The position numbers were made by a program, and so were the translations under genes. This document shows, one piece after another, positions 7,643 through 39,145 of a DNA stretch of 64,000 bases. The notes beneath the pieces are model-generated. The model was not told where the DNA came from and did no database searches. It worked only from the letters and a program-made list of their open reading frames with translations. Source of the stretch: Eubacteriales bacterium (lineage in GTDB: Bacteria > Bacillota > Clostridia > Oscillospirales > JAAYXM01). The stretch covers positions 14,621 through 78,620 of the forward strand of contig JAZOAI010000028.1 in NCBI GenBank assembly GCA_045595365.1, read 5' to 3'. Each line of letters starts with the position of its first letter. Positions within the stretch are counted from its first letter, which is position 1.

Positions 7643-8138
7643 AATCGCAGGTGGGTACACCTGCGATTGCCACAAAGCAAAGCGCCGCATAGCCAGTAAA
7701 TGTTGGCTATGCGGCACTTTTCTGTTATTTCACAGTCACTTCAAGTAACAAAACGCAAACCAACAAAGTTTTGCGTTTTGAAAAGGAGCTGTGACGTAAG
7801 GAACGCAAAGTGACTTTTAAAAGTCACTTTGCGTGGCAGAAGTCCACAGCGACGCCGAGGCGGGGGAGAGAAGTTGTGCTGTGCACAGCTTGCACCCTCG
7901 ACGACCCAAATGCTTCGCATTTCGGTGCCCGTCTTCAGGCATATGCGCTAAAAACGATTATCAATCGTTTTCTTCACGCGCATACCCTCTCAGGGTTAGA
8001 CTCCCCCTCATATCCGAACTCAAACGGAAAGAGGACACCGTGTGGTGTCCTCTTTCCGTTTGGTGGAACAAATGCTTTGATATCCGAACTTTCTCTAATA
8101 GGACTTCCGGGGTCCCCGAAAAGCCGTTGGCTTTTTGG
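7643..8138. repeat. Cluster of seven strong stem-loops in non-coding DNA
   Basis: Hairpins at 7643-7668, 7684-7715, 7750-7779, 7803-7834 (a perfect 32-nt palindrome), 7950-7970, 8021-8061 and 8113-8138, all read directly from the sequence. Confidence 0.6.
7935..8061 (+). repeat. Left copy of a dispersed ~100-bp module (aaaacgattatcaatcgtttt hairpin + agaggacacc..ggtgtcctct hairpin)
   Basis: It shares atgtgcg/atatgcg, the identical 21-mer aaaacgattatcaatcgtttt, catatttccgac/catatccgaac and the gaggacacc hairpin with 40935-41027, in the same order and orientation. Confidence 0.7.
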
Positions 8139-9722
8139 GGAGAAGGAAGAGCAAGGGAGTGGACGGATGTTTTCGCCAAAAGGCGGAAACGAAGTCAAAC
8201 GCACTTTGCTCTGACGTGGTGGAGCAGATATCATCAAGGATGAACACTCCTCTGCACCGTCATTTTCTCCTTCAAGAGCTGCTTCAATATCATCAAGTGG
8301 GATGTTCTCAATGTTCAATGGCTTCTTACTCGCATTGATAATTAATGTGAAATGATCATCATACAAATAAACAGAACGGACAAATATATTTATAATCGCA
8401 CGGCGCTTGTTTACATCATCAAAAGGTATTTCGCATACATAGTTCAAAAATGCTAAAACTTGTGCTTCTGATAAACATATTTTCTTATTATTCTCAATGG
8501 CAAGCTGAGTTTCCAATTCTGCCTTTTCCGCCTGTCTCTTATTTAGTCGCTCGGTTAGCATATCAACCGACTGACCTTGTTCGATACCTTTCCACAGATT
8601 TTCGATAGCAATATCTATTTCTTTGATTGCCCTTTTGAGACCTTTTACAGAAACATTATCCGGGCTTTTGTTGCATTCCTCCGAAACACGTTTGGCAATG
8701 AATTTGATTTTATCATCAGTGAGCATTTTAAGGCATTCGCTTACAACTCGTACTTCGATATATTCCTTGCCAACCATCTTTTTGTTGCATTTCTTTTTAC
8801 GAGCATTTTTACACATATAATAGTGATACTGTTTTCCGGATTTTCCCGTCCCACCATATCCGACCATCATCTCTTTACAATGCCCACAGTAAAGCTTTGT
8901 AGTTAAAAGATATTCATTTTCACCACGTGTTCGTGCAGGTGCGGTTTTATTCCTATTCATAAGGTCTTGTACTCGGTAGAACAAATCGTCATCCAGTATG
9001 CGAGGCATTCCTCCGGGTGTTTCAACTCCTTTATATAAGTATATACCTATGTATCGTTTATTACTGAGTAGGCGGCTCAAACTGTTGTAAGTGAATTCGT
9101 TGCCAAGCGAGGTCTTTACCTTTCTTCGCTGTAAGTCTTTTACAATATCGGCTTTTGTCTCTCCGCTTGCATAGCGCTCATATATTTCGCGCACAATAGC
9201 GGCTTCCTCTTCGTTCACGTAGAATTGGCGCTCCTTGTTTACTTTAAAACCCAAACCGGGATTGCTTCCATTTGATAGACATTTTTCTGCATTAATTGCC
9301 ATTCCTCTGTGAATTTTTTGTGCCAACTCTACCGAATAATATTCAGCCATACTTTCAAGAACGCCTTCGATTAGAATTCCCGAAGCATCATCTGAAATGT
9401 TTTCCTTTGCAGATAAAACCCTCACTCCGTTTTTCTTTAATTTTGCTTTATAAATCGCACTATCGTATCGGTTTCGTGCAAAGCGATCAAGCTGATATAC
9501 AAGCACGCCTTCAAAAGTGTGTTTTTCACTATCTGTAATCATCTTTTGAAAATCGGTTCGAGTATCGAACTTGCCACTTTGAGCTCTGTCAATATATTCG
9601 CCGACTACGGTATAATTGTGCGATTCAGCATATTCATAACAAACTTTTAATTGTCCTTCTATAGATTGCTCTGTTTGACTATGACTTGAAAACCGAGCGT
9701 ATATTACAACATTCATCAACAT
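7974..9722 (-). CDS. Large serine recombinase (resolvase/invertase N-terminal domain + recombinase + zinc-ribbon)
   Basis: N-terminal VVIYARFSSHSQ...QL catalytic-serine domain, a central recombinase domain, a Cys cluster (CGHC...CKNARKKKC) and a coiled coil. The last ~80 codons read into GC-richer hairpin-laden DNA, so the true C-terminus is uncertain. Confidence 0.9.
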   Translation of the reverse strand: MLMNVVIYARFSSHSQTEQSIEGQLKVCYEYAESHNYTVVGEYIDRAQSGKFDTRTDFQKMITDSEKHTFEGVLVYQLDRFARNRYDSAIYKAKLKKNGVRVLSAKENISDDASGILIEGVLESMAEYYSVELAQKIHRGMAINAEKCLSNGSNPGLGFKVNKERQFYVNEEEAAIVREIYERYASGETKADIVKDLQRRKVKTSLGNEFTYNSLSRLLSNKRYIGIYLYKGVETPGGMPRILDDDLFYRVQDLMNRNKTAPARTRGENEYLLTTKLYCGHCKEMMVGYGGTGKSGKQYHYYMCKNARKKKCNKKMVGKEYIEVRVVSECLKMLTDDKIKFIAKRVSEECNKSPDNVSVKGLKRAIKEIDIAIENLWKGIEQGQSVDMLTERLNKRQAEKAELETQLAIENNKKICLSEAQVLAFLNYVCEIPFDDVNKRRAIINIFVRSVYLYDDHFTLIINASKKPLNIENIPLDDIEAALEGENDGAEECSSLMISAPPRQSKVRLTSFPPFGENIRPLPCSSFSPKSQRLFGDPGSPIRESSDIKAFVPPNGKRTPHGVLFPFEFGYEGESNPERVCA

Positions 9723-9785
9723 TCCTCCAATCTATACAGTATATAACTATAATCACTCTCCCTCAAAAGTCGATTCTGCAAAAAA

Positions 9786-9983
9786 TCAGGCATCCGAAAT
9801 ATTATTATCGGATGCCGATTTAATATATTCAGGATGCTCGATCAACCACTTTTCAAAGTATGCATTCCCTTCGTCGCTGTTATAGAAATCTATGATTTCC
9901 GGAACTAACGCTTTAGCAAAGCAAATAAGCAGTTCTTCGGGAAGATCCACTTTAGTATAGTCGATATTTGGATGTTTCTGCAT
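9786..9983 (-). CDS. Small hypothetical protein
   Basis: 65 aa with a gaggtgag RBS, tightly packed behind the ParB-like gene in the same operon. Confidence 0.55.
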   Translation of the reverse strand: MQKHPNIDYTKVDLPEELLICFAKALVPEIIDFYNSDEGNAYFEKWLIEHPEYIKSASDNNISDA

Positions 9984-9992
9984 AGGCTCACC

Positions 9993-10850
9993 TCATCGTT
10001 CTCGTTCTTTTTGCCGCAAGAGGAATTTTTGATAGTGTTCGCAAGCTTTAAGCACAAAATCATCCATTTGTTTTTTGCTTGCTTTCGGAAGATACTTTTG
10101 TATGCGTTCCATTGGCATTTTAAACATTTCCTTTTGATTTGCTTTTTCTTCTGACATAATTTCAAGAATTTTATCATCGTCAAGCTCTCCTGCCTGACTT
10201 AACTTTTTCATGCGAACCGCCTGAGATAATGACGGAGTGCAATCCTCGCTTTCAATAGCTTGTATCAGGTCTTGTTGTTCAATGTCATTGAGGTATGAAA
10301 GCTCAACTGCCGGAGTGAAGGAAATTCGACCCTCGTCCACATATTCTAAGAGTTTTGGATGCAGATAAGTAAGCCGTATATAGCGTTGTACAGTTTTGTA
10401 GCTTTCGCCATATGATTCGCCAATTTCAGCAGATGTTCTGCTGTCATCCGACTTCGGGACAAGTTGTCCCGAAGTTAAATCTGTCCTATGTCCCTGTCTG
10501 CTCATTGCATCCATCTTTAATTTATAAGCAAAGGCTTTTTCGCTTGGCGAAATGTTATCTCTGTGCAGATTACTGTCAACAAGTGCTATTGCGGCATTAT
10601 CTCTGTCCATTTCAACAACAAGGGCAGGAACTTCTGTGAGCCCTGCCCGTTTACTTGCAAATAATCTGCGATGCCCTGAGATTATTTCGTATTCATCATT
10701 TTCAAGCGGTCTGACGATGATAGGGGATAAAATCCCGTGTTCCTTTATGCTCTCAATCAGCATTTCCATTTCATCATCATGATTTACCTTGTAGGGATGA
10801 TTTTCAAATTCCCTTAATTTTGTTACATCAAGTTTTTTCATATTTTTCAT
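9993..10850 (-). CDS. ParB/Spo0J-like N-terminal nuclease-domain protein
   Basis: ParB-box region PIIVRPL...YEIISGHRRLFASKRAG. Its start overlaps the relaxase stop by 4 nt (ATGA coupling). Confidence 0.85.
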   Translation of the reverse strand: MKNMKKLDVTKLREFENHPYKVNHDDEMEMLIESIKEHGILSPIIVRPLENDEYEIISGHRRLFASKRAGLTEVPALVVEMDRDNAAIALVDSNLHRDNISPSEKAFAYKLKMDAMSRQGHRTDLTSGQLVPKSDDSRTSAEIGESYGESYKTVQRYIRLTYLHPKLLEYVDEGRISFTPAVELSYLNDIEQQDLIQAIESEDCTPSLSQAVRMKKLSQAGELDDDKILEIMSEEKANQKEMFKMPMERIQKYLPKASKKQMDDFVLKACEHYQKFLLRQKERER

Positions 10851-12220
10851 CGTGATTTCTCCTTATTTCTCTTTTCAATTTTTCTTTCCATTTCCCGTTC
10901 AATATCAAGGAGACGTTGCACTTTCGGTACAGTTTCCAAAGTAGCTTTTGCGATTTTGAGCTTATCCCGTATAGGTTTTATTTGTGCAGATATACCCCTG
11001 ATTTCGGATAAATACATATCTTTATCCTCAACGGTTTTAGCTCGTCTACGTTTGTTATCCGTTTTTGAACGTTCTTCCTCAAGCTTGGATATCTGCTTTG
11101 ATAAATTACCTATAAAAGCTTCAAGCTCCGGCACGGTGTTGATATTCTCATCGTGCAAGAGCCTGAATTGCTTTTGATATTGTTCGAGTTTTCTTAATTC
11201 CTGCCGTAGCTCAGGAGATAACGGTGGCGTGTAGTTTGGTTTTGGTGTGCTTGGCTTTAACAGTTCCATAAACAAATAAAACAAAGCTTCAAGCGTATCC
11301 ATATATTTCACACGCCTTAGTTGATACTCAAGTTCTTTAAGCGGTGTTTGACGATACTTGGCTTTTGTTTTCTTACATGGTTCGCTGAACTGATTTAAAT
11401 GAGCACGATTACCCGTTTCCCTGATCCTTTCTAAAATTCTGTACTTTTTATACTCGTTACCCAATCTGTCAAAACGAATTGCTTTTTCCCAAGTGAGAGC
11501 TTTAACAGATGGATGGTCTGTCGCTTCGGACCGTGAAAAGACATATCCCTTATGTTTCATAAGAGCGACAAACTCCACATAGCTTGCAGAATTATTTATT
11601 GCATCATCAACATCCTCACGGAGAATATCTCTGCGAGTTTTTCCACCTTTCTTATGTACCCAATATGCGTTTCTGTCACCGTTATAAAATTCCGCATTCT
11701 CAAGAACCGATTTTCCGTATTCCTTACATATCTCATCGGATATTTCTCGCAAGAGCTTATGGTCTGAAATATGGTTTTCAAATTTAAGCCCCGTTTTAAA
11801 TGACACGGAATTTATGACAAAATGGTTGTGGAGATTATCGGTGTTTAAATGCGTAGTAACAACGATTTCGTATTCTTTACCCCACATACGCCGTGCGGTC
11901 TTCATTCCAATCTCAAAAGCTTCTTCGGGAGTCACCTCACCTGACTTAAAGCTCTGATACCCATGATATGCTACATTACCGCCCATTTTTCCGTATCGGC
12001 GTTTTGTTGCCATCATCTGTTCACAGGCTCTTACGGGTGGACAGTTAATAGCTCCCACAAATAATTGCTTATCTGTCTTATCATCATTTGACACATATTT
12101 AAGAGCCGCTGCCAAGTCATCATCAAGATATTTTGGATTAGTGGTCTTGTCTGGGTTTTCTGCATATTTTACAACATCTTTTAATGAGCCTTTGACAGGC
12201 CAAAATCCCGTGGTTGCCAT
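10847..12220 (-). CDS. Relaxase/mobilization nuclease (MobA/VirD2-type)
   Basis: Histidine-triad motif HLNTDNLHNHFVINSV, an N-terminal relaxase fold and a C-terminal coiled coil. It immediately follows mobC. Confidence 0.85.
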   Translation of the reverse strand: MATTGFWPVKGSLKDVVKYAENPDKTTNPKYLDDDLAAALKYVSNDDKTDKQLFVGAINCPPVRACEQMMATKRRYGKMGGNVAYHGYQSFKSGEVTPEEAFEIGMKTARRMWGKEYEIVVTTHLNTDNLHNHFVINSVSFKTGLKFENHISDHKLLREISDEICKEYGKSVLENAEFYNGDRNAYWVHKKGGKTRRDILREDVDDAINNSASYVEFVALMKHKGYVFSRSEATDHPSVKALTWEKAIRFDRLGNEYKKYRILERIRETGNRAHLNQFSEPCKKTKAKYRQTPLKELEYQLRRVKYMDTLEALFYLFMELLKPSTPKPNYTPPLSPELRQELRKLEQYQKQFRLLHDENINTVPELEAFIGNLSKQISKLEEERSKTDNKRRRAKTVEDKDMYLSEIRGISAQIKPIRDKLKIAKATLETVPKVQRLLDIEREMERKIEKRNKEKSR

Positions 12221-12550
12221 TTATTCATCACTCTCGCTTTCAATCTTACTTTTGTCTGTTACAAGAAGCTTTGCATAAATTTCATCAAGAACCTTTACAA
12301 CCTCTGTTTGAAGTTCGATACTATTTAAAGTTCCAAGTGCTTCATACAGAATACCGATCCTTTCTGTAAACTCATAAAAGCTTTCAGGCATAAGAGCCTT
12401 GGGATAATATCCTAAAGCTCTCTTTCTCAAATATTCAGAAACCGACAAGCCACATTTGTTAGCTTTATTTTGTATGCGAACCTTTTCCTTTTCGGTAACT
12501 CGCGTTTTTAACTGTACTTTTCGTTCTTTCAAAATTATCACTCCTAACAT
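12221..12550 (-). CDS. mobC: MobC-type relaxosome accessory protein (ribbon-helix-helix)
   Basis: 109 aa. RVTEKEKVRIQNKANKCGLSVSEYLRKRALG matches the MobC/RHH pattern, and the gene abuts the relaxase start. Confidence 0.8.
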   Translation of the reverse strand: MLGVIILKERKVQLKTRVTEKEKVRIQNKANKCGLSVSEYLRKRALGYYPKALMPESFYEFTERIGILYEALGTLNSIELQTEVVKVLDEIYAKLLVTDKSKIESESDE

Positions 12551-12672
12551 AAATTTTTAAGGGGGGATTGGGGAACTCCCCAAAAGGGTAAAGGCAGGAT
12601 TTCCGAAAGGAAGTCCCGCCTTTTTCGGAATTTGTGGTACACAAGTTCCCTGCTCGTTACAGTACCGGACAG
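12551..12672 (-). promoter_or_regulatory. Candidate oriT / mob-operon control region
   Basis: Intergenic region directly upstream of mobC containing the inverted repeats ttgggga-ac-tccccaa and aggcaggatttcc-gaaa-ggaagtcccgcct. The call is positional inference only. Confidence 0.3.
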
Positions 12673-12972
12673 TTATTCTGTTCTCTGTATTGATTTAAGG
12701 CGAATATTGCCTCGTTTTCCTCTTTCATAGACAACTTCCACTCTTGTTCCAAAGTCTATTTCAGGTATTCCTAAGTAGTCATCGGGTTGCTGAAAGGCAG
12801 TGCACATGATTTTTCTGCCATCGTCCAACTCGACATAAGCAATGGCATTGCATTTTCTGCCCCATACCGCAAATCTCATTGTGCCTTTGAAAGTACCCTC
12901 AATCTCGTTAAACTCATAACCATCTCTGCTGAAGTTTGACATTGCAAACTGATTTCTTGATAAAATTCTCAT
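12673..12972 (-). CDS. Hypothetical protein
   Basis: 99 aa from the ATG at 12972, which has an aggagg RBS. No family recognised. Confidence 0.5.
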   Translation of the reverse strand: MRILSRNQFAMSNFSRDGYEFNEIEGTFKGTMRFAVWGRKCNAIAYVELDDGRKIMCTAFQQPDDYLGIPEIDFGTRVEVVYERGKRGNIRLKSIQRTE

Positions 12973-13043
12973 AATGTTTTCCTCCTGTAAATTTAATTTT
13001 GAGCATAAAAAATACACCTACCGATTTATCATCAATAGATGTA

Positions 13044-13961
13044 TTAGTTTTCTTCATCAAAGCCTAAATCAACTTTGGTGAATTCCTGATAAGCTAAGCC
13101 TATCTTTGTTATTCGTTTTTGAACTCCGCTGTGGTTTTTATAACCTAGCACTTCTGCGATTCCTTCTTGTGTGTATCCCTCCAATCTCATTTCAAGTATT
13201 TTTCTGTCTTTTTCTGATAAGATTTCCATAAACTGTTTTACTATCACCTCCGATATAACTTGTTCTTCTGTGTTTTGACTTGAGTCCTCAAATACCAACT
13301 CCTGCCCATCGTTATATTCTGCATACTTGGCTATTTCTGCATCAAGAGATATAATTGGATGTTGAGTGCGAGTGTGATACCATTTTCGTGTAAAATCAGT
13401 TTTTTGATTGCTGTTGCGGTAATCAAAGTCCTCGTGGCATTGAAACTCTTTTGCAACATCAAGAATTTCGTACATTTCATATTTTGCCATAACACTTTTG
13501 ACAGTGTGGTTAAGATAAACCTCAATGTCTTCAAATTCAAAAAATTGAAATTGCACAGAGCCTTCCTTTTGGCAATGACGATAGAGTTCGTTAACAGATA
13601 GTATAACTCTTTCTTCTATCAGACCTTCAAGCCAATATTGTGGTTTGTGTGCAAATATCCACGAAGGCTCATAGCCTGAGTAAATTTCTCTTGCCGCGCC
13701 AATCCCCATAAATGGCCACACTATGTATGCAGTTGCATCAATGATGAATTGAAGAAATAAGTCACTTTCTACAAAATCTATCCATTTTCTATCAAAAAAT
13801 AGAAAATTAGGATTTCTTGGCACTTCGAGAAATATTTGACCGGCTTCTTCTAACATTTCTTTTGGAAATATATAGAATAGCGGAATATACTCCGAATTCC
13901 TATACGCAGACACAGTTCCGTCTAAACGAGTGATGTGCAGTTGTTGTACTTTGGGTAACAT
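13044..13961 (-). CDS. Sigma-70 region-4 / LuxR-type HTH domain protein
   Basis: The C-terminal LSEKDRKILEMRLEGYTQEGIAEVLGYKNHSGVQKRI is a region-4-like HTH. The N-terminal 230 aa are unassigned. Confidence 0.6.
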   Translation of the reverse strand: MLPKVQQLHITRLDGTVSAYRNSEYIPLFYIFPKEMLEEAGQIFLEVPRNPNFLFFDRKWIDFVESDLFLQFIIDATAYIVWPFMGIGAAREIYSGYEPSWIFAHKPQYWLEGLIEERVILSVNELYRHCQKEGSVQFQFFEFEDIEVYLNHTVKSVMAKYEMYEILDVAKEFQCHEDFDYRNSNQKTDFTRKWYHTRTQHPIISLDAEIAKYAEYNDGQELVFEDSSQNTEEQVISEVIVKQFMEILSEKDRKILEMRLEGYTQEGIAEVLGYKNHSGVQKRITKIGLAYQEFTKVDLGFDEEN

Positions 13962-14328
13962 TTTTATTCACTTCCTTTCCGAGAATAGCATTCTCTATTT
14001 ATAAACGACATAAGTATATATAAAATGTTCCTGAAATTTAAAAATATTTTATCATATTGATTGCATCTCGTAAATATCTAGGTTCGTCAATAATGATGAT
14101 ATTTTAAAACTAATTTTATAACACATCATTGACAACTCCACAAAGAATTCAACTTCAATTTTGGAAAAGAAATTGAATATTCTAAACTATTTTGATATAA
14201 TTATAAGTAATATTATTGAATCTCCCTAATGATTTTAATGAATAGCATCAAAATTTAAATATGCAGGTGAGATTGAAGTTCTAAATTCATCTAATGATTA
14301 AAAAAACACCAAAGGAGTGACAGTAAAA

Positions 14329-16065
14329 ATGAAAATCTCATCATTGAAACTATCTGCAGATAGGAATTGCGAAGGAATTAAAATTGGCAAACAATTTAAA
14401 GGAGAGATTGATAAGCTTGGAGATATTGTTGTCTTAACGGGAGGAAACGGATCTGGCAAAAGCAGGTTTTTAAGACTATTGTATAATAGTTTTCAAAATA
14501 TAAAACATAAAGATGGCTCTAATGAACTTTGTTTTAAAGTCGTAGACACAGATGGGGTTTGTAAGGAATTGACAAGTGAACTTGCAAGTGAAATGAATAT
14601 CATAAACTATTCGCATTTTGATGCAAAATTACAATCTCCTGAAAAATTTTCGCCGTATGTTATACATCAAGCAAAAAACAAATTGAAACAGTGTAATTAT
14701 GAGGAAACAGCTTTGAACTCATTATTGTATTTAAAGGATTTAGTTGAAGGGTATTCTGATGAATCTAATCAAGCAAATTCATATAAGGAACTCAGAGAAT
14801 TTATTGAATTTGCAAAAGAATTCGAATTAGAATTTACTTTTATTGAAGAAGAAAGGAAATTAAAAATATTTGGTAGAGACATGGAAAAAGCAAATCTGTC
14901 CCCAGGCCAATTATATGCTTTACGTATCGCAGTAGCATGTAAAGTTCATGATATAGATGATAACTTGATTTTCTTATTAGATGAGCCAGAAACTCACCTG
15001 CATCCCAGTCTGTTGATTAAGGTAATTAATCAACTTTTAATGCGCTTCAAAGCCTCTCAATTTTGGATTGTCACCCACTCTCTATCACTTGTTTCATATT
15101 TGACAGTAACCAAAGAGGATACATCGGTACTTTATTTAGAAAAAGGAGAGGTGAGAGATCGATTGCGAAGCAATTCCGAATTAATTCTCAATGGATTGAT
15201 TGGGGCTGATGAGGAACAATTCGCACTTAAACAGTTATTTGCATCACCAGAGGAAATGGCTTGCAATAAATTTTGTGCAGAATGCTTTATGGATCCCTTT
15301 GTTGTAACAGGAGGAAGTTCAAATGATCCCTCTACTAGTATGATTGAAAATGAGTTGTATTCAGGTAAAGAACTTAAACCTGTTACTATAGTAGATTATG
15401 GTGCTGGATGTGGAAGGTTATTGGAATGTTTGGTCGAAGATGGGATCAAAAATGGCTACGAGTACTATGCTTATAACGTTGATCCTGAGGATGCACATTG
15501 TTGTAAGAATATAATAGAAAATTTCAATGTGAATGGTCGATCATATTTTAAAAAGGAAGAATTATTAGAACTTAAAAATAAAGTTGATAAGGTTATTATG
15601 GTAAATGTATTACATGAAATTCATCCTGATGAGTGGAAATGTGAATTTCAGACGATATCAGATTTACTAAAAGACGATGGGGAACTTATTATTGTAGAGC
15701 GTGAGGAATTAACAATAGGAGAGGCTCCTCATATAAATGGATACTTAATGTTAACAGGCGAAGATAATAAGTCTAGTGCAGCAGAAGAATTGTTTGGACC
15801 TAATAATGTTATATTAACAAGACATAAACAAAAACCATATATTATTAGATATACGATTTCTAAAAACGGTGTCACAACGGCGATTAATGCAAACATAGAA
15901 AGGGTTTTAAAACAGCTTGAAGAAGATGCAATTTCGCATATTGCTGAGCTACGTAAAGATCGAAAAAACATTTCTCAATGCAAGGAAAAATATAAACTTG
16001 GTCTAAGTTTAGCCTTTTGGCTGAATCAACTTTCTAGTGCGATTATGTATCTAAAAAAAGATTAA
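14329..16065 (+). CDS. ABC-type (AAA_21-like) ATPase fused to a class-I SAM-methyltransferase fold
   Basis: Walker A GGNGSGKS (nt 14440-14463), signature-like LSPGQ, Walker B/D-loop IFLLDEPETHLHP and H-loop VTHS. The C-terminal half has MTase motif I IVDYGAGCGRL (nt ~15388), the acidic YAYNVD and VIMVNVLHEI. ATG at 14329 with an aaaggag RBS. Confidence 0.8.
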   Translation: MKISSLKLSADRNCEGIKIGKQFKGEIDKLGDIVVLTGGNGSGKSRFLRLLYNSFQNIKHKDGSNELCFKVVDTDGVCKELTSELASEMNIINYSHFDAKLQSPEKFSPYVIHQAKNKLKQCNYEETALNSLLYLKDLVEGYSDESNQANSYKELREFIEFAKEFELEFTFIEEERKLKIFGRDMEKANLSPGQLYALRIAVACKVHDIDDNLIFLLDEPETHLHPSLLIKVINQLLMRFKASQFWIVTHSLSLVSYLTVTKEDTSVLYLEKGEVRDRLRSNSELILNGLIGADEEQFALKQLFASPEEMACNKFCAECFMDPFVVTGGSSNDPSTSMIENELYSGKELKPVTIVDYGAGCGRLLECLVEDGIKNGYEYYAYNVDPEDAHCCKNIIENFNVNGRSYFKKEELLELKNKVDKVIMVNVLHEIHPDEWKCEFQTISDLLKDDGELIIVEREELTIGEAPHINGYLMLTGEDNKSSAAEELFGPNNVILTRHKQKPYIIRYTISKNGVTTAINANIERVLKQLEEDAISHIAELRKDRKNISQCKEKYKLGLSLAFWLNQLSSAIMYLKKD

Positions 16066-16126
16066 ATTTTGCTATAATCTAAAAAATTTTAACGCTAATT
16101 TGCGATGATACAAGGAGGAAATAACG

Positions 16127-18592: not shown

Positions 18593-18816
18593 TTAGTTGA
18601 TATAAATTGCTACTCTGATCTTGTATTATAGGGAGATATGTCTATGGTAACGAGAAAAAGGTATTTATACTACCGTAATCAAAGATAGTGAGATTATATT
18701 GTATTTATGAAATAAATAAATTGCAATAGAGAAAGAGTATAATGCCAAAATCATCGACATCTAAACCGTTCAATGTTTTAATTCTAAATACACAATTTCA
18801 TGGAGGAATAAAGTCT

Positions 18817-19677: not shown

Positions 19678-19693
19678 ATACATAAAAACACAA

Positions 19694-19736
19694 AAAGCCC
19701 GAATATGTAGGCATTATGCTTACACATTCGGGCTTT
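19694..19736 (+). terminator. Rho-independent terminator
   Basis: Stem aaagcccgaatatgta / tacacattcgggcttt (one mismatch) downstream of the Bro-N gene. Confidence 0.6.
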
Positions 19737-19882
19737 AATAATATCCGCACATTTGGCTATATCACACGTACAAAATATACTTTTGAGTGGAGATTTGTGT
19801 AAATGCTAAAATTCATTGATAACTTCTAAATAGTATATTTATGTAAGTGGTAGAATACATAGAGGAAAGGAAGTTGATTTGA

Positions 19883-20722: not shown

Positions 20723-20732
20723 AATAAAAAAA

Positions 20733-20755: not shown

Positions 20756-20790
20756 ACTCCTGCACAAACACTTGTGAAGTTACATAAGGA

Positions 20791-20983: not shown

Positions 20984-21017
20984 AGAAAGTATTGTTTTTG
21001 AAAGGTGGAATGTCTTT

Positions 21018-27742: not shown

Positions 27743-27857
27743 AAACAAAGCTTCTCTGACGGGAAAACGTAAGAGTTATTGCAGTGAAAAACAAGTAAAT
27801 TTATCGACTTGTGATTGCCCTCTTGGGCAATCACAGGTGGAAAGGAAATGATACAAT

Positions 27858-32114: not shown

Positions 32115-32182
32115 GTAAGTCGCCAGATGCCTACCTCTGACTTAAGAGGTAGGCTGAGGTTAAAGAATTAAGGAGGATTTTT

Positions 32183-35100
32183 ATGAAAGCAATAGCAAAA
32201 AGATTTGTCGCATGCTTGTGTGTTATATCAATGATACTGTCTATGATGATGGTCGCACAGGCTTCCGGCACAGAAATTGTAGTTGGCAAAACTACTTTGG
32301 TACAAGCAAACGGAGAAGAAATTGTTCAAATCCCAATTGATCTCTCAGGTAATACCGGTATCGCAGGTATGACTTTGAGAATTTCATACACTGAGGGCTT
32401 GACATTAACGGAGATAGCAAAGGGTTCTGGCTTGGCTTCTTTGACAATGACAAAACCTGGTGTTTTAACATCAAATCCTTTTAATCTTGTTTGGGATGGA
32501 CAAGATGCCGACACATCAAATGGTACAGTTGCAACATTAGTTTTCACAGTACCTAAGAATACAGTCAAAGATTATGAAATCACTGTAATTCCTGATGGCG
32601 TTTTTGACAATGATCTTAACGATGTTACAATAAATATTACAAATGGAAAGATATCTGTCGAAGAAAAGCCGAAGGAAAACTTCGCTGGATTATCATTCGC
32701 TGATGCAACTTTTACTTATGATGGCACAGAAAAGGCTCTTGCAGTATCAGGACTTCCCTCCGGAGCATCTGTCACATATACAAGTGCAGATTTTGATGCG
32801 GATGGCAAAGCAATCGATGCCGGAACATACAACATTACAGCAACAGTTAAGAAAGATGGATATAATGATTGGTCCGATGAAGCTACATTAACAATCGATC
32901 CTAAAGCAATTTCCGTAACAGGAATTACCATATCAAATAAGGAATATGACGGTACTGACGCAGCTATACTGAGTGGCGGTACAATTTCAGGACTCGTTGC
33001 TCGTGATGCGGCAGATCAGTACTGTGATGAGCATCAGGGATATAGAATTAAGTATTACATCCCTGAATTTGGTACATTCGCTGATGCAAACGCAGGCACA
33101 AATAAAGCGGTTACAATTGATGAGATTGTTCTTACTGGTTGCTCGGCTGAAAACTATGTTTTAACACAGCCTACAGGTTTAAAGGCTAATATTACTAAAG
33201 CTCCGATTACTGTTACAGCAAAGGACGTTACAATAAAGACAGGAGCTACTATTCCTAATTTTGACGAGAATAGTTATGAAATCACTTCCGGAAAATTGTT
33301 TGGTGACGATAAAATAACAGGTAGTTTAGCAACAAATTGCACATCTACTTCTGCTGCTAAAGACTTCAATATTACACAGGGAACTTTAACAGCAGGTAAC
33401 AACTATAACTTGACATTTGTTGCCGGCAAGTTGTCTGTTGTTGATAAAACAGTACAAAATGTAACTGTTGACGGTGTTGTTACCGAAAAAACATATGGTG
33501 ATGACGGATTTAAGATTACGGTAACACCTGATGTAAATTCTAGTCTTGACAACTTCACAATTACATCAAGCAATACAAATGTTGCAGATATTGATGAAAG
33601 TGGCAATGTTACAATCAACAATGCAGGAACAACAACTATTACTGTAAAAGAAGCTGGTAATGCTGAATATGCTCCGTTCGAAAAGAGCTGGACACTTACA
33701 GTAAAGAAATTACCTCTTACAATTACAGCTGACAACAAGACGAAGAAAATCGGTCAGGAAGACCCACAGCTTACACATCAGCTTGCAGGCGAATTGGTAG
33801 GTTTTGATACTCTTGAAGTAACCCTTGTTAGAGAACAAGGCGAAGCAGTTGGTAAATATGCTATTACAAATAAAAAGATTGTAGTTAGTGATAACTACGA
33901 AATCACTTTCAATCCGGGTGTATTTGAAATTGTTGACAAAACACCACAGGTAATTACAGTAGATGGCGTTGTAGAAAAGAAGGCATATGGTGATGACGGG
34001 TTTAAGATCACTGTAACACCTGATGCAACTTCTAAGCTTGACAATTTCTCAATAACTTCAAGTGATGCAAATGTTGCAATTGTTGACGAAAGTGGAAATG
34101 TTACAATTAAAGGCGCCGGTATTACTACCCTCTCTGTAAAAGAAGCTGGCAACGAAGAATACGCAGCATTTGAAAAGACTTGGACACTTACGGTAGATAA
34201 AGCAAAGGTTACAATTACAGCAGATAATATCACTAAGAAAATTGGCCAGAATGATCCGGAACTTACATATTCAGTAAATGGTAATTTGTATGGTGAAGAT
34301 AAAGTAACCGGTGAGCTTGCAAGAACAGCAGGCGAAGAATTAGGCAAATACGACATCCTTATTGGTACATTGGCAATCAACAATAATTATGAAATCGCCT
34401 TTAATAAAGGTATATTCGAAATCGTTGATAAAACTCCTCAGGTTATCACCGTTGCTGATATTGATGCAAAAACGTATGGCGATGCATCTTTTAAACTTGA
34501 AGTAACACCTGACGCTACTTCAAAGCTTGATACATTTACATATGTCAGCAACAATGTTGATGTTGCAGATGTTGAATCTGACGGAACAGTAACAATTAAA
34601 GGTGCTGGTGAAACTACTATTACTGTTAGCCAGGCTGGTAACGAAGAATATGCAGCAACAGAAAAAACTGTTAAATTAGTTGTTGATCCCATTACAGTAG
34701 CAGTTACTGCAATTGATATGGACAACAAGACAGCAACAATTGAAGGAGTTTTAGAAGCTGATAAGGCAGGCGTAGAGCTTGACTTCGATAATGTTAAAAC
34801 AACGGTTATTTCTTCAGAGAAATCAACTGTTGAAGAAACAACAACTATTACCTCAACACTTAAAGTAACTAACCTTAAAATTAAAGGTGAAAAGGCGAAG
34901 AATTATGTTGTAGATAAGGGCACTTCATTAACAACGACTGTTGTGTCAACAACAGTAACAGAAAAACTTACTGAAGATGAAAATGTTACAATCGAAGCTG
35001 CTCCTGTTGATGATAAAACTATTATAGTGACAGACGTAGCTGTTGCTCCTGAAGCGGAAGTTAAGAAGGTTACCATTGACGTAACTGCAATAGCTGATAC

Positions 35101-36448
35101 TAAGATTAATACGGTTGCAATTCCGAAAGCAACAGTAGATACAATTATTGGTATCGATGCTGAAGCTGCTCTTGAAATCACTCTCAAAGATGGTAGTGAT
35201 GAAAACAAAGAAAGTACAATTACCTTGAATGCGCAGGCACTTGCAGCAATCCAAACCGCCGGTACTTCGGCAACAACAATATCCATCTCTGTAGATAAAA
35301 CAGAAAAAGAAGAATTGGCGACTGAACAGGCTGCAACGGTTGAAGAAGTATCAACCAAAGCTCCGGTAGTTTACACCTTGAGCATCGTAGATGAAGATGG
35401 CAATTCTGTAGCAGGTAGCTTTGGAGATGGTGGTTCAGCTACTGTAAAACTTCCTTATGCAAAACCTGCTGGTAACGGAAATGTTGTTGTGAAGTATTTG
35501 GACGATTTGGGTAATTTAACAAACATAACCAATCCTTCATATGATAGTGCTACACAGCTTGTAACTGTTGTACTTGGACACTTCTCTGAATACTTGATTT
35601 ATACCGAACCTGTAGTTAGCCACGGCGGTGGCGGCGGTGGTGTTTCAAGATACACCATAAAATTTGAAACTAATGGCGGTAGCGCAGTTAAAGCAATTAC
35701 AGTTAATAAGAACGCTGTTGCAGAAGAACCGACTGCACCGATAAAAGAGGGTTTCAAGTTTGAAGGCTGGTACACAGATAAAGAACTTACAACAGCTTAC
35801 AATTTCACAGCAAAAGTTACAAAGAACTTCACCCTTTATGCTAAGTGGATAGAAACTGAAAAAGAACCTGAAGTTGTTGAACCCGAAACATCAACTGCAT
35901 TTACAGACGTTAAGGAAAACGATTGGTTCTATGCAGATGTTCAGTATGTTGTTGAAAACAACCTTATGAATGGTGTTGGCAATGATAAGTTTGCTCCTAA
36001 TGATACACTTACAAGAGCAATGCTTGTAACAGTTCTTTATCGCAACGCAGGTGAGCCTGCTACAAATAGAAGCATTCCGTTTGCCGATGTTGATATGGGT
36101 GCATATTATGCAAATGCTGTTTCTTGGGCAAAGCAGAATGGTATTGTAAACGGTGTAACTGAAAACGAATTTGCACCTGATGCAAATATCACTCGTGAAC
36201 AGATTTCTGCTATTATGTTTAGATATGCACAGTACAAGGGTTATGATGTAAGCGTTGGAGAAAACACAAATATTCTTTCCTATACCGATGCAGAAAGCGT
36301 TTCTGAATATGCAGTAGCTTCTATGCAGTATGTAGTTGGTGGCGGCCTTATCAAGGGCAAAACAACTACAACACTTAATCCGAAAGATAATGCTACAAGA
36401 GCTGAAATTGCAGCAATTCTTCAGAGATTTATTGAAGCTAACAAATAA
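32183..36448 (+). CDS. Giant S-layer-homology-anchored surface protein: cohesin-like + MBG/Ig-like repeat arrays + Flg_new + 3 C-terminal SLH domains
   Basis: 1421 aa with a signal peptide and a cohesin-like module (IPIDLSGNTGIAGMTLRISY...LVWDG). It has tandem 164-aa Big_2-like + MBG-like units, a Gly6 tract, and C-terminal SLH repeats (FTDVKENDWFYADVQYV...). Confidence 0.8.
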   Translation: MKAIAKRFVACLCVISMILSMMMVAQASGTEIVVGKTTLVQANGEEIVQIPIDLSGNTGIAGMTLRISYTEGLTLTEIAKGSGLASLTMTKPGVLTSNPFNLVWDGQDADTSNGTVATLVFTVPKNTVKDYEITVIPDGVFDNDLNDVTINITNGKISVEEKPKENFAGLSFADATFTYDGTEKALAVSGLPSGASVTYTSADFDADGKAIDAGTYNITATVKKDGYNDWSDEATLTIDPKAISVTGITISNKEYDGTDAAILSGGTISGLVARDAADQYCDEHQGYRIKYYIPEFGTFADANAGTNKAVTIDEIVLTGCSAENYVLTQPTGLKANITKAPITVTAKDVTIKTGATIPNFDENSYEITSGKLFGDDKITGSLATNCTSTSAAKDFNITQGTLTAGNNYNLTFVAGKLSVVDKTVQNVTVDGVVTEKTYGDDGFKITVTPDVNSSLDNFTITSSNTNVADIDESGNVTINNAGTTTITVKEAGNAEYAPFEKSWTLTVKKLPLTITADNKTKKIGQEDPQLTHQLAGELVGFDTLEVTLVREQGEAVGKYAITNKKIVVSDNYEITFNPGVFEIVDKTPQVITVDGVVEKKAYGDDGFKITVTPDATSKLDNFSITSSDANVAIVDESGNVTIKGAGITTLSVKEAGNEEYAAFEKTWTLTVDKAKVTITADNITKKIGQNDPELTYSVNGNLYGEDKVTGELARTAGEELGKYDILIGTLAINNNYEIAFNKGIFEIVDKTPQVITVADIDAKTYGDASFKLEVTPDATSKLDTFTYVSNNVDVADVESDGTVTIKGAGETTITVSQAGNEEYAATEKTVKLVVDPITVAVTAIDMDNKTATIEGVLEADKAGVELDFDNVKTTVISSEKSTVEETTTITSTLKVTNLKIKGEKAKNYVVDKGTSLTTTVVSTTVTEKLTEDENVTIEAAPVDDKTIIVTDVAVAPEAEVKKVTIDVTAIADTKINTVAIPKATVDTIIGIDAEAALEITLKDGSDENKESTITLNAQALAAIQTAGTSATTISISVDKTEKEELATEQAATVEEVSTKAPVVYTLSIVDEDGNSVAGSFGDGGSATVKLPYAKPAGNGNVVVKYLDDLGNLTNITNPSYDSATQLVTVVLGHFSEYLIYTEPVVSHGGGGGGVSRYTIKFETNGGSAVKAITVNKNAVAEEPTAPIKEGFKFEGWYTDKELTTAYNFTAKVTKNFTLYAKWIETEKEPEVVEPETSTAFTDVKENDWFYADVQYVVENNLMNGVGNDKFAPNDTLTRAMLVTVLYRNAGEPATNRSIPFADVDMGAYYANAVSWAKQNGIVNGVTENEFAPDANITREQISAIMFRYAQYKGYDVSVGENTNILSYTDAESVSEYAVASMQYVVGGGLIKGKTTTTLNPKDNATRAEIAAILQRFIEANK

Positions 36449-36462
36449 TCCTAAAAACATAG

Positions 36463-36493
36463 TTAACCCCCTTGCCGTAAGCAAGGGGGTTAA
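36463..36493. terminator. Bidirectional terminator between convergent genes
   Basis: Stem ttaacccccttgc / gcaagggggttaa with loop cgtaa. Confidence 0.65.
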
Positions 36494-36495
36494 TG

Positions 36496-37053
36496 CTATT
36501 CTAGAATCAATTTTCTTGCAAGTATAAACAAGCTATTGTCCACGGATGGAATATCCCTCGACAGAGGATCTTTCATATGTTCCACATTAGGATTAAAGTC
36601 AGGTTTGACGGATTGATAAATTCTTGTTCGGGCATTGAACTCTGCTTCCGCATAAGTAATTTTACCGCATTTATAATCTTCAATCACAGGAGCGATTATA
36701 ACTCTGACTTTTTCGATATTGTTTGCGTAAAAATCAGGTCGCAGATACATATCTCGGTATTGCCATATTGCAGCATTGGCGATGTCAACCAATTCGCCGG
36801 AGCTATAACCGTTTGTCTGACCGTTGAGCCAAGCATTAAAGAATATGCGATTTGATTTTGCTCTTGCATCGGCATATCCCAAGCCATTCTGTACCTCGGT
36901 TAGCATATCGTCTATAAAGCTTTCTACAATAACGATTGCCTCGTTTGTTGCATTGTAGGGTGCCGACTCTCTCGGAACCCCTGCTGCACTTACAGAAAAA
37001 GAACTTATTAAAATTGATACGATTGATATGATGGATATGATGGATTTCTTCAT
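36496..37053 (-). CDS. Secreted hypothetical protein
   Basis: Start set to the ATG at 37053 (MKKSIISIISIVSILISSFSVSAAG signal peptide) behind a ggaggtg RBS. Confidence 0.55.
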   Translation of the reverse strand: MKKSIISIISIVSILISSFSVSAAGVPRESAPYNATNEAIVIVESFIDDMLTEVQNGLGYADARAKSNRIFFNAWLNGQTNGYSSGELVDIANAAIWQYRDMYLRPDFYANNIEKVRVIIAPVIEDYKCGKITYAEAEFNARTRIYQSVKPDFNPNVEHMKDPLSRDIPSVDNSLFILARKLILE

Positions 37054-37054
37054 T

Positions 37055-37435
37055 TCAATGCACCTCCATAGAACATACAAATTCTCGTAATACAATTTCT
37101 TCTGCAGAGTAGTGAATGTTGTTCATAGCACCCACCCAAGCCATTTGGTCTTTCTCTTTTAATTCTTCTGTGATGCCTTGTTTGACTGCCATATCTTTTA
37201 TAAGATTATCAACCATTTCCTTTGCAGTTGTGTCAATTTCTTCAAGATACGCAAGCCAAGTGCCGTTAAGCATTTTCATTGAGTAGAAAGCAGGGCGATT
37301 TTCCTTAATAAATATTGAGTGTAACTTTCCATACCTGCCAATGTTGTAAGTCCCTTCAGGTGCTTTTAGATTTGGAATGTAGCAATCGCCATTTCTTACA
37401 TACTCAATTCCATTTTCAATGATTTTTTCTTTCAT
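37055..37435 (-). CDS. tnpV: TnpV-like transposon protein
   Basis: 126 aa. By recollection, the N-terminal ENGIEY...GDCYIPNL and the rest resemble the TnpV family of the Tn4451/Tn4453 mobilizable transposons. Not verified by search. Confidence 0.6.
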   Translation of the reverse strand: MKEKIIENGIEYVRNGDCYIPNLKAPEGTYNIGRYGKLHSIFIKENRPAFYSMKMLNGTWLAYLEEIDTTAKEMVDNLIKDMAVKQGITEELKEKDQMAWVGAMNNIHYSAEEIVLREFVCSMEVH

Positions 37436-37585
37436 AGCGTAAACGCCTCCTTTAAATTTGGTATCTTCATTTTATCAGAAGGCATTTACTTTGACGAATG
37501 TGCGGATAAAGTTAATATTCTAAACATAATAGGTTGCTTTAAAAATGAATTGTGATATAATAGTCATAGATGAGAGGTGAAAAAG

Positions 37586-38677
37586 ATGTTTGGTGATCTG
37601 GTTAATCTCTTTAATTTGGGGGCTTTTTCGGATGAGGAAAAAGAATTGCTCAGAACCGATTTTACATATAAGAAGCAAATGAGCCGACTTTTAAAAGAAG
37701 CTCGTCAAGCTGCAAAGAGAGAGACTTGCTATTTTTGCGGAAAGAGCGTTACGAGTTTTTGTAATTCGCATTCTGTTCCGAGATTTTGTCTTGAAAATAT
37801 AGCCACAAAAGGCGATGTACTAACACTAAATACCGTTGTGGATAATCCTTTGATGGATATTGAAACCGGAGTGAATAAAGCAGGAACATTCCATTTGATT
37901 TGCAATGATTGCGACAGCAAGATTTTTTCAGATTATGAAAACCCCGATAATTATTCAAATCAACCTACTCCGAAAATGATTGCTCAAATGGCATTAAAAA
38001 ATAGTTTGAAATCTATTAGCAAACGCCTGTTTGAAATTGAACTTTTTAATATTTCGGCCAAAAAAACAGATGTAGCACGAATGTTCAGCGAAATAAAAAA
38101 CGCCGTAAATGAAATAGACTTAAAGGAATATGACGATAGCTATAAAAAAGCAAAGAAAGCAATTGAAAAAGATAGTTCAACAGACTACTATGTGTGCTAT
38201 TATGAAAAAATAAATTATGTAGTGCCAATCGCTTTTCAATGTTCATTAGCATTAGCAATTGATTTTAACGGGAATATTATCAATGACATTTATAACCAGT
38301 CTCCTAAGTATAGAATACAAAACATTCATATAAGTATATTACCTTTGAAATCGGAAACTGTAATCGTGATGTTTATTGAGAATGGAGATAAACGTTATAG
38401 GCAGTTTTATAAACAGTTTAATAAACTTTCATTAGAAGATAAACTTGCCACATTAACATTAATTATGTTTATGTATTCAGAGGATATGTACTTTTCAAAA
38501 TCTATTGAGAAAGAAGTTCGTGAAAGTAAAGCGCTTTGTGAAGCGGGAAAAACCGGACAAGACATCGTTTCGCTTACACCTTTCTTTGATCCTTTAGAAA
38601 TACTAAGAGAATCGCATTCTTTAGATAAAAGGAATGAGATCCCGAATTTGCTTTCAGAAAAATATAAATTAGCATAA
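37586..38677 (+). CDS. Cys-rich hypothetical protein, possibly DUF4238-like
   Basis: 363 aa from the ATG at 37586 (agaggtg RBS). It has CYFCGK...FCNSHSVPRFCLENI and ICNDCDSKIF Cys pairs. SHSVPRFCLEN resembles, from memory, the H-x-V-P-x-F-x-L signature of DUF4238. Confidence 0.5.
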   Translation: MFGDLVNLFNLGAFSDEEKELLRTDFTYKKQMSRLLKEARQAAKRETCYFCGKSVTSFCNSHSVPRFCLENIATKGDVLTLNTVVDNPLMDIETGVNKAGTFHLICNDCDSKIFSDYENPDNYSNQPTPKMIAQMALKNSLKSISKRLFEIELFNISAKKTDVARMFSEIKNAVNEIDLKEYDDSYKKAKKAIEKDSSTDYYVCYYEKINYVVPIAFQCSLALAIDFNGNIINDIYNQSPKYRIQNIHISILPLKSETVIVMFIENGDKRYRQFYKQFNKLSLEDKLATLTLIMFMYSEDMYFSKSIEKEVRESKALCEAGKTGQDIVSLTPFFDPLEILRESHSLDKRNEIPNLLSEKYKLA

Positions 38678-38678
38678 C

Positions 38679-38720
38679 AAAACCGCTACCTTAGACTTAC
38701 ATCTAAGATAGCGGTTTTTT
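38679..38720 (+). terminator. Rho-independent terminator at the element's right end
   Basis: Stem aaaaccgcta...tagcggtttt followed by a T-run. Confidence 0.65.
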
Positions 38721-38792
38721 CGTTTCGTATTAGAGCATCACCTTGACGGCAAAGCCGCCGCTAAAGAAGTAGGTGTTCGTCCAATACACATT

Positions 38793-39145
38793 TGGTGGAG
38801 GCGGGGGGAGTCGAACCCCCGTCCGAAAACATATTCACATAAGCTTCTCCGGGCGCAGCCTGATGTTTACATTCCCTCATTCGGGCGCCAACAGGCGGGC
38901 TTCCGAATTTGGTAGCTTCATATTACATGCCGCGCTCAAAGCTTTGCGCGGTCACGTTCACCACTGTGTGACACCTTACTCCCGGGCCGTGGTCCTCCCG
39001 GGGAAGATGGCCGCTATAATTTAAGCAGCAATAAGTTTATTGTTGTTATTTAATTTATAAAAATTAAGTTGCAGATTTTAAAGCGGCTCTGCGCCTCTGC
39101 CCGCTGCTCGTGCTTCAACATCCCCGTCGAAGCCTTTACGCCCCC
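38793..39145 (-). ncRNA. ssrA: tmRNA (transfer-messenger RNA)
   Basis: The minus strand begins GGGGGCGTAAAGGCTTCGACGGGGATG and ends GACGGGGGTTCGACTCCCCCCGCCTCCACCA (tRNA-Ala-like acceptor/T-arm). An internal short ORF ends ...GCT GCT TAA. smpB is nearby. Confidence 0.9.

Follow-up and report, generated by a model that had tools for sequence, protein, structure and literature searches.

The serine-integrase integrative mobilizable elements (IMEs) of Firmicutes encode their own integrase, carry a relaxase with an accessory protein and an origin of transfer (oriT), contain no type IV secretion genes, bear variable cargo and integrate in or next to a conserved gene (PMC5704250). These characteristics are shared by the element described here (with a candidate oriT), an AT-rich block at the end of ssrA, the transfer-messenger RNA (tmRNA) gene, in a stretch of 64,000 nucleotides from contig JAZOAI010000028.1 of a Eubacteriales bacterium (the whole stretch is called the window below). 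It differs from those IMEs in its target, which would be the terminal CTCCACCA of the tmRNA gene, and in its attachment site (attP), which would lie inside the open reading frame (ORF) of its integrase. In 2014, tyrosine integrases alone were known to target tDNAs, i.e., tRNA and tmRNA genes (Islander; PMC4383910), and in 2020 TIGER placed 14 of 297 serine-integrase islands at t(m)RNA genes and called for experimental proof (PMC7192596). In the literature, of which our coverage is incomplete, we found no description of a serine integrase whose gene contains its own attP or which inserts at the CCA end of tmRNA; the sole case to emerge was that of Dehalococcoides.

Among known serine-recombinase islands at ssrA, the ssrA-GI family of Dehalococcoides (PMC3146451) is the closest precedent. 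Like the element in the window, these islands have a serine recombinase at ssrA (the CcrB-like DsiB) and a ParB-domain gene in the integration module, occur in tandem arrays 3' of ssrA and are considered mobilizable. The best NCBIfam match of the recombinase in the window is CcrB (133 bits, the cutoff being 900). In Dehalococcoides the crossover lies in the T-loop, with a 20-bp repeat, whereas here an 8-bp identity is found at the very 3' end (the 3' 25-mer of the tmRNA gene occurs once in the window even with 3 mismatches allowed). DsiB is accompanied by a second, small serine recombinase, DsiA, whereas here there is no such partner, the recombinase being the only ORF with a Resolvase domain in the element. 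The integrase gene lies at the ssrA side in Dehalococcoides but at the far end here, where it reads outward, and no split integrase gene was reported for the Dehalococcoides islands.

We propose, with a probability of about 0.8, that an IME was inserted by its large serine recombinase (LSR) into the very 3' terminus of the tmRNA gene by way of an attP inside its own recombinase gene. The block is a real AT-rich integrative mobilizable element with an LSR: its GC content (~8.2-38.8 kb) is 0.371, compared to 0.481 in the left flank and 0.476 in the right flank, and the finer profile goes from ~0.50 over 7650-8250 to ~0.36 past 8250. At the left end, DNA homology (blastn) to seven loci with LSR relatives, fetched for two homologues, ends exactly at 8217; each of the seven reads ..GCTCCACCA and then continues with unrelated sequence. 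Thousands of LSR homologues were found in the protein collection, the best of which cover ~86% of the query; they are 478-895 aa long and some have foreign C-terminal domains. The motif ..CSS(L/M)xxPAPP is common to all of the homologues that were read (59/59), nothing is shared beyond it, and hundreds of homologue clusters show the same integrated arrangement. The domains fused to these proteins (GH43, response regulator, sortase, amidohydrolase) are genes that lie 3' of ssrA in the respective hosts. In databases, the integrase genes of this clade thus carry spurious C-terminal extensions that result from read-through into the DNA downstream of ssrA. The diverse tails and fused domains had also prompted the idea of a multi-target (TnpX-like) recombinase, which was rejected because the ssrA-side junctions are uniform and many tails open with terminator hairpins; the tails are the differing DNA downstream of ssrA. 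DUF4368, which marks the multi-target LSR clade (PMC10083194), had no match in the LSR at E<=0.01 (Pfam).

The right end was determined by searching IMG/VR with the 366-aa gene at this end of the element and with the LSR. Positions 37548-38818 of the window align with L101 and L102 at 89% DNA identity, and L088 and L089 align over shorter pieces spanning 38705-38819; no tmRNA or tRNA gene was found within these four loci. In the multiple alignment the conserved block starts exactly at CCACCA, and the preceding sequence varies by locus. Scanning IMG/VR for the pattern CCACCA-N8-TTGGACGAACACC gave 13 further loci. The upstream contexts of the right arms in IMG/VR are 25-30-nt 3' fragments of tmRNA behind tyrosine-integrase prophages, one other tRNA-like end, unrelated DNA and, in L104 and L108, an intact LSR ORF. 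Because they recur after unrelated upstream sequences, the 44 nt at 38749-38792 belong to the element, and the GC-rich 60 nt that end at 38792 are likewise part of it. These comparisons place the element in the end of ssrA, with a predicted crossover within the last 8 nt of the tmRNA gene; both copies of the 8-bp repeat are perfect.

The original prediction had started the element at 7974, had let it end at the right-hand switch in composition (38.72-38.74 kb) and had placed it beside ssrA, with a gap of about 50-60 nt. The size that it gave (~30.5 kb) agrees with the 30,576 bp found, and its left-hand switch (8.21-8.23 kb) is real and falls inside the LSR ORF. The right-hand switch is not the boundary, the breakpoints of the relatives put the crossover inside the gene and leave no such gap, and position 7974, which lies 243 nt beyond the element, is where a chimeric ORF has its stop. 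The terminator hairpin lies ~75-110 nt from the end of the tmRNA gene and not at ~60 nt. Earlier in our own analysis, a junction was modelled on the TGACG shared by 8212-8216 and 38744-38748 (30,532 bp, with a 522-aa circular ORF ending in ..RQGDALIRNEKTAILDVSLR). It was rejected because of the right-arm comparisons, and scans for the chromosomal site (attB) based on it were negative as well. Intermediate models with the core CCACC-AA-GGTG, using 38740-38748, were ruled out by the same comparisons.

Across the two ends, the recombinase gene is split. The LSR ORF of the integrated state consists of 502 element codons (8217-9722) followed by 80 host-derived codons (7977-8216), the latter in hairpin-rich DNA with a GC content of 0.50 and with a translation that is low-complexity junk. 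Joining 8217 to 38792 keeps the LSR frame and gives APP-NVYWTNTYFFSGGFAVKVML-stop, from which the native enzyme is predicted to have 520-522 aa and to lose its last 20 residues upon integration. Nine distinct right arms keep the LSR frame (e.g., NRYWTNTYFFSGGFAVKCSL and IGHWTNTYFFNGGFAVKVWLR, each followed by a stop). Their first ~21 nt are invariant even at silent positions, and in codons 8-17 the pairwise differences among the nine unique relatives are distributed over the three codon positions as 8:23:153, a pattern that shows selection on the tail (the tails are phylogenetically related, so that these counts are non-independent events). An uninterrupted LSR of 516 aa with a nearly identical tail is present in L104 and L108, that of L108 being surrounded by phage genes (ERF, YqaJ, helicase, SLT). 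The LSR has the domain set of a serine integrase: a catalytic domain with its serine, a recombinase domain, a zinc ribbon and a coiled-coil insert (from Pfam and the helices of a structure model). Its catalytic and DNA-binding domains are intact, without frameshift, and the YARFSS motif is present. The AlphaFold2 model of the reconstituted enzyme has a mean predicted local distance difference test (pLDDT) score of 62 and long helices at residues 355-410.

The arrangement of motifs around the junctions is consistent with recognition by a serine integrase. In the left arm of attP, GNGTTC, which encodes Cys-Ser-Ser, ends 25 nt before the end of CCACCA in 6/7 relatives; in the right arm, the reverse complement of GNGTTC, which encodes Trp-Thr-Asn-Thr, starts 14 nt after CCACCA in 6/6. 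In the tmRNA T-loop, GGGTTC ends 20 nt before the end of CCACCA in 8/10 contexts. The attP arms are thus symmetric about the first C of CCACCA (tmRNA C71), and in attB the motif stands 5 bp closer to this centre of symmetry. In A118-type serine integrases the motif of the zinc-ribbon domain is likewise shifted 5 bp inward in attB, and the spacings of 25 and 20 nt fit this rule (PMC3783163). The integrases of phages A118 and Bxb1 share with our LSR the order of domains, a quasi-palindromic attP and a distal motif 5 bp inward in attB (PMC3783163); unlike in these phages, attB is here the end of a structural RNA gene with one well-conserved arm, and attP is coding sequence of the enzyme.

Taken together, integration might proceed as follows. 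An attP of ~50 bp would lie inside the recombinase gene, 20 codons ahead of its stop, and the gene would be whole in the circle (520-522 aa). The recombinase would bind attP by way of GTGTTC and GAACAC, which double as the Cys-Ser-Ser and Trp-Thr-Asn-Thr codons, and the chromosomal site by way of the conserved T-loop GGGTTC of the tmRNA, 5 bp closer to the centre. Strand exchange would take place inside the shared CTCCACCA, with the centre of the dyad at tmRNA C71; the reconstructed joints are ..GATATCTGCTCCACCAAATGTGTATTGGACG.. for attP and ..GCACTTTGCTCTGACGTGGTGGAGGCGGGG.. for the matching attB. After integration, the tmRNA sequence would be unchanged and would have gained the element-borne terminator (~38680-38720) downstream, the recombinase ORF would run 80 codons into host DNA, and the native tail codons would adjoin ssrA. 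For transfer, the element would be excised, the MOBP-like relaxase and the NikA-like protein would nick the conserved inverted repeat, and the mating pore of another element would be used.

Several points weigh against this reading, in addition to the relatedness of the nine tails. The TGGTGGAG 8-mer is not significant alone (4 copies in the window, 0.93 expected), and the boundary therefore rests on the comparative breakpoints. The host arm 3' of ssrA fits the expected motif poorly (4/10 positions, by reading); because of this poor match, attB recognition seems to lean on the tmRNA arm. The odd dyad leaves the crossover dinucleotide unfixed, although TC or CC, inside the shared CTCCACCA, is the probable choice. 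The tail has a pLDDT <30 in the structure model, which is hence uninformative on it, and the tail-less chimeric enzyme of 582 aa may be inactive. No directionality factor was identified for the element, and TnpV or the small ORFs are our guesses for this role. For this host neither an empty site nor a circular junction was found, and three attB patterns were unmatched in genome_contigs and metagenome_contigs (the first two were built on the rejected TGACG junction, and the refined third was absent from metagenome_contigs). The comparison with relatives that the original prediction had recommended thus set the ends through breakpoints but gave no empty site. The collections contain no genome close to the host: SmpB is matched at 76% identity at best, without conserved synteny. 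None of the 80 SmpB loci fetched shares the flanking genes or has the right arm, and exact-protein look-ups (GAPDH, relaxase, GDH and the LSR's own cluster) had nothing on record.

Among the other explanations, the one that survives best, unlikely as we hold it to be, is that the conservation of the 60 nt beside ssrA reflects a DNA-level constraint on a binding site only and that the tail has no function in the protein. The invariance of the first ~21 nt, including TTGGACGAACACCTA, even at third codon positions is in line with it, as is the structure model, which predicts no structure for the tail. However, codons 8-17 lie outside a half-site of ~26 bp and yet vary almost only at third positions, with frame and stop kept, and the L108 enzyme, 46% identical to the reconstituted protein of the window overall, keeps 19 of the last 23 residues.

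We regard it as quite unlikely that the element is a fixed remnant, its recombinase destroyed by the loss of a needed tail and the island now host DNA. The lack of a detected empty site or circle would suit such a remnant; so would the tail, which is the most conserved part of the protein and so probably important, and the decay seen among relatives (in L001-L004, a fusion without the catalytic N-terminus). The intact domains of the LSR, the 20 detached codons that are still in frame with their stop, and the perfect repeat copies all argue against decay here, and an arrangement that kills the enzyme could not have spread so widely as to be found in hundreds of clusters. Because it is so widespread, the architecture must be compatible with excision.

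That the block is a prophage or a phage satellite rather than a mobilizable element is very unlikely. Relatives of the recombinase and of the right arm do occur in IMG/VR, L108 is a phage with an intact homologue, and a Bro-N protein is present; but genes for capsid, tail, terminase or lysis functions are missing from the ORFs scanned, the block has a relaxase, an accessory protein and an oriT-like repeat, and most of the IMG/VR matches are tyrosine-integrase prophages that adjoin such an element at ssrA. Hardly credible, finally, is an intergenic end at the composition switch (~38.72-38.75 kb, ~45-60 nt 3' of ssrA) past which the LSR ORF merely runs on: the rise in GC, the 5-bp TGACG identity at both places and the small palindrome of the reconstructed intergenic site speak for it, but 38749-38792 recurs with 78-89% identity in L088, L089, L101, L102 and nine more IMG/VR loci behind unrelated upstream DNA that includes an intact LSR ORF, continues the LSR frame with third-position variation, and the matching attB pattern is absent from both collections.

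The coordinates of the features are listed in Table 1. The tmRNA gene, which Rfam finds in full length, was missed by ARAGORN.

Table 1. Features of the ssrA-associated element and its junctions (positions in the window).
Feature	Position	Strand	Basis or remarks
Integrated element (one copy of the 8-bp repeat counted)	8217..38792		30,576 bp; GC and homology breakpoints
LSR ORF, integrated state, 582 aa	7974..9722	-	Pfam Resolvase 1.5e-25, Recombinase 6.5e-18, Zn_ribbon_recom 7e-08
Detached LSR 3' end, 20 codons NVYWTNTYFFSGGFAVKVML and stop	38730..38792	-	In frame across the reconstructed attP
Left direct repeat TGGTGGAG	8217..8224	+	Minus strand CTCCACCA, part of LSR codons Ala-Pro-Pro 500-502
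Right direct repeat TGGTGGAG	38793..38800	+	3'-terminal CTCCACCA of the tmRNA gene
LSR-side junction (approximate extent)	8201..8247	-	Left arm of attP (GTGTTC, Cys-Ser-Ser) and the host arm once just 3' of ssrA
ssrA-side junction (approximate extent)	38772..38819	-	T-loop/acceptor arm of tmRNA (GGGTTC) and right arm of attP GGACGAACAC, codons Trp-Thr-Asn-Thr
tmRNA gene (ssrA), full length	38793..39145	-	Rfam RF00023, 160.8 bits, model 1-374/374
Hairpin with flanking T/A runs, terminator	~38680..38720		Read from sequence; conserved in L101 and L102
Small conserved ORF, ~65 aa, between the ParB-like gene and the LSR	~9786..9983	-	Homologue: 64-aa ORF of L005
ParB-like protein	9993..10850	-	ParB_N 5.1e-21, HTH_ParB 9.2e-06; 59% identical to the L005 counterpart
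Relaxase, MobA/VirD2-like nuclease domain, MOBP-like	10847..12220	-	PF03432 2.5e-38
NikA/MobA-like (ribbon-helix-helix, RHH) accessory protein	12221..12550	-	PF21983 1.2e-16; NCBIfam MobA 8.9e-11
Candidate oriT, inverted repeat GGGAACTTG..CAAGTTCC	12627..12671	-	Upstream of the accessory gene
Two backbone ORFs: 114 aa; 305 aa with sigma-70 region-4-like helix-turn-helix	12673..13961	-	Sigma70_r4_2 2.2e-05; order of L005
Defence-candidate cargo: AAA_21 ATPase-methyltransferase fusion, HD-domain protein, Bro-N protein	14317..19677	+	Pfam, PADLOC
Xer-like tyrosine recombinase and 205-bp segment	19883..20983	+	Phage_integrase 1.2e-30; perfect 23-nt inverted repeats 20733-20755/20961-20983
Surface cargo: SLH+cohesin protein; three 1418-1649-aa proteins	21018..36448	+	Dockerin, LRR, Listeria-Bacteroides repeat, MBG and SLH domains
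ssrA-side end module: 199-aa ORF (-), TnpV (-), 366-aa ORF (+)	36496..38677		Pfam; comparison with L101/L102

The same target is used well beyond this host. A phmmer search with the 33-aa junction peptide against 1.84 billion representatives gave 43 clusters, nearly all of them short and evidently spurious ORFs in which a translated tDNA 3' end is followed by Pro-Pro and the tail. Several clusters (P0122, P0123, P0130 and P0140) match at least 25 tmRNA codons in the frame of the window (..RL(R/H)PEK..FRTGV(R/Q)(L/F)P..), for which reason they come from long tmRNA segments and not from short displaced fragments; other clusters translate tRNA ends. Judged from these junctions, the standard site of this LSR clade is the 3' terminus of a tmRNA or tRNA gene, and the site, which the original prediction had called atypical, appears normal for it, though the literature treats serine integrases there as rare. 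Serine integrases that target the ends of tDNAs with a gene-spanning attP form a clade that is widespread and little described, and the element in the window belongs to this abundant clade of gut Clostridia and phages. The T-loop motif would explain how one enzyme family finds sites in many hosts, and the LSR, recognising the near-universal T-loop and acceptor end of tmRNA, could serve as a broad-host-range integration tool. In L020, a genome locus that carries no element, ssrA ends in ..CATCTCCACCA and the gene at +237 nt past ssrA is 72% identical to the gene at +233 nt past the LSR end of L088; it is a diverged, family-level equivalent of the empty site.

The signature on which Islander relies, a tyrosine integrase together with a displaced tDNA fragment, was not found here: the tDNA is intact, the fragment is 8 bp, the integrase is a serine integrase, and the sole tyrosine recombinase of the element is the Xer-like invertase candidate of its cargo. 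Reviews and island-finding tools assign tRNA and tmRNA genes to tyrosine integrases (PMC4383910, PMC7192596), and a finder that insists on such an integrase or on a long displaced fragment would overlook elements of this kind.

Some related loci deserve mention. In several IMG/VR loci (L101, L106, L107, L113, L116 and L105/L089), a tmRNA fragment of 25-30 nt at the end of a prophage runs straight into the LSR tail codons; these tyrosine-integrase prophages seem to have entered ssrA in front of an LSR element already in place, which would result in tandem arrays. The LSR of L022 (11255-13042) reads antisense into a tmRNA 3' end and that of L094 (~1853-1950) likewise into a tRNA end; both are 53-54% identical to the LSR of the window and use the same type of site, with the recombinase gene on the tDNA side. 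In contigs from pig and human gut metagenomes (L001-L004; e.g., L001 10001-12229), a 742-aa ORF joins the N-terminal domain of a relaxase to an LSR that lacks approximately its first 29 residues, including the catalytic serine. This fusion was found on nine contigs and looks like a deletion derivative that is unable to recombine. The best plasmid match was found in OY725851.1 (Subdoligranulum variabile, 25,741 bp), in which an LSR at 12196-13584 is 41.7% identical to that of the window; this small unannotated circular record may represent a related element in excised or plasmid-like form.

The mobilization backbone agrees with the assignment as an IME. The order of its genes (305 aa, 114 aa, NikA-like, relaxase, ParB-like, small ORF, LSR) is kept in L005, a metagenome-assembled genome of Oscillospiraceae, with protein identities of 29-79%. 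A block of ~40 nt at the candidate oriT is near-invariant in the window, L005 and L001, while its flanks diverge. The nearest NCBIfam families of the relaxase are TraI_MobP and SAG1250, both below the cutoff. No coupling protein, VirB4 or other pore component was found among the 22 main ORFs scanned. An LSR-driven IME without conjugation genes, as originally predicted, is therefore supported by the Pfam matches of LSR and relaxase together with this absence. Likewise, the predicted set of a small ORF, ParB-like protein, relaxase and MobC was recovered by Pfam and homology, except that the accessory gene encodes a NikA/MobA (RHH) protein and not Pfam MobC. Judged from its sequence, the element has every testable characteristic of an IME (its own integrase, a relaxase and oriT candidate without pore or coupling genes, and defined ends at a specific site), and its LSR has those of a serine integrase. 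A compact relative of ~11.4 kb in L089 (1-11705) has both ends in one locus and an LSR that is 68% identical; its cargo includes RepA_N, an AbiEi/AbiEii pair, a GHKL ATPase and a radical SAM protein but no relaxase, which indicates that the same integration module serves quite different elements.

At the ssrA side, TnpV (37055-37435, minus strand; PF14198 1.3e-36) is not the last gene, as had been thought, because the gene for the 366-aa protein (37577-38677, plus strand) lies beyond it; this protein is 91% identical in L101/L102, where its gene stands beside the same right arm. The hairpin at 38680-38720 is probably a terminator shared by this gene and, after integration, by ssrA. The combination of TnpV with a large serine recombinase and a Mob relaxase had led to the suggestion of kinship with Tn4451/Tn4453. 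These elements carry TnpX, TnpV and TnpZ (a Mob/Pre relaxase), are ~6 kb long and multi-target with GA ends, and the joint of their circle creates a promoter for the recombinase. The element in the window resembles them in having a large serine recombinase at one end and a TnpV homologue and in being mobilizable rather than conjugative. In contrast to them, it has no DUF4368, a MobA/VirD2-type relaxase (PF03432, not Mob_Pre), a length of 30.6 kb and a single site at the end of a tDNA, and its recombinase gene reads outward over the junction, so that the joint of the circle would restore the 3' end of that gene and not its promoter. TnpV alone is specifically shared, and we do not maintain the kinship.

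Attachment sites inside an element's own gene are known from SSV1-type fuselloviruses (split tyrosine integrase gene) and from mycobacteriophages with integration-dependent immunity (repressor gene), which use tyrosine recombinases. As in these systems, integration here would alter the product of an element gene, and the integrated and free states would make different proteins; unlike in these systems, it is a serine recombinase that is affected, and it would lose only a conserved tail of 20 residues. A gene-spanning attP raises the question of whether the conserved tail controls the activity or the direction of recombination. It is possible, but doubtful, that the splitting of the gene acts as a built-in state switch, in which the full-length, tailed enzyme (..YWTNTYFFSGGFAVK..L) is made from the free circle only and a tail-less enzyme, extended arbitrarily by host codons, from the integrated copy. 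If the tail tuned activity, stability or directionality in this way, the element would sense its own state of integration: the full-length form could favour integration and the truncated form permit excision, or, alternatively, the tail could be a C-terminal degron. To set the direction, a classical directionality factor would then be needed only in part or not at all.

The cargo for defence and surface proteins amounts to ~22 kb. Its first part (14317-18592) encodes an ABC/AAA_21 ATPase fused to a SAM-methyltransferase domain (582 aa) and an 821-aa HD-domain protein. With PADLOC, the ATPase is NsnB/AriA/PtuA-like, there is a weak dGTPase-like match, and the Bro-N protein matches the candidate PDC-S13 (2e-128); no complete known defence system was matched by the ATPase/HD pair. 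The 205-bp segment has promoter-like sites on both strands and lies directly upstream of the 15-kb surface-protein locus; the region 19883-21100 has the appearance of an invertible promoter switch that travels with the cargo. The element shows, by its defence candidates and its switchable surface locus of cohesin/dockerin proteins, what its kind moves among gut anaerobes. The 366-aa, 199-aa and 114-aa ORFs of the element, and two ORFs of 417 and 134 aa in the host DNA, had no PHROGs or NCBIfam family.

Two further observations concern the host DNA. Inverted copies of a ~75-nt element (77%; 7931-8004 and 40918-40991), with the internal hairpin AAAACGATT..AATCGTTTT, are located just outside the island and 3' of a tRNA-Leu gene, respectively; they have no Rfam match. 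The 417-aa and 134-aa ORFs form a two-gene block of low GC content (0.31-0.44) at 5724-7394 without a Pfam family, which may be the remnant of an older island or a toxin-immunity pair.

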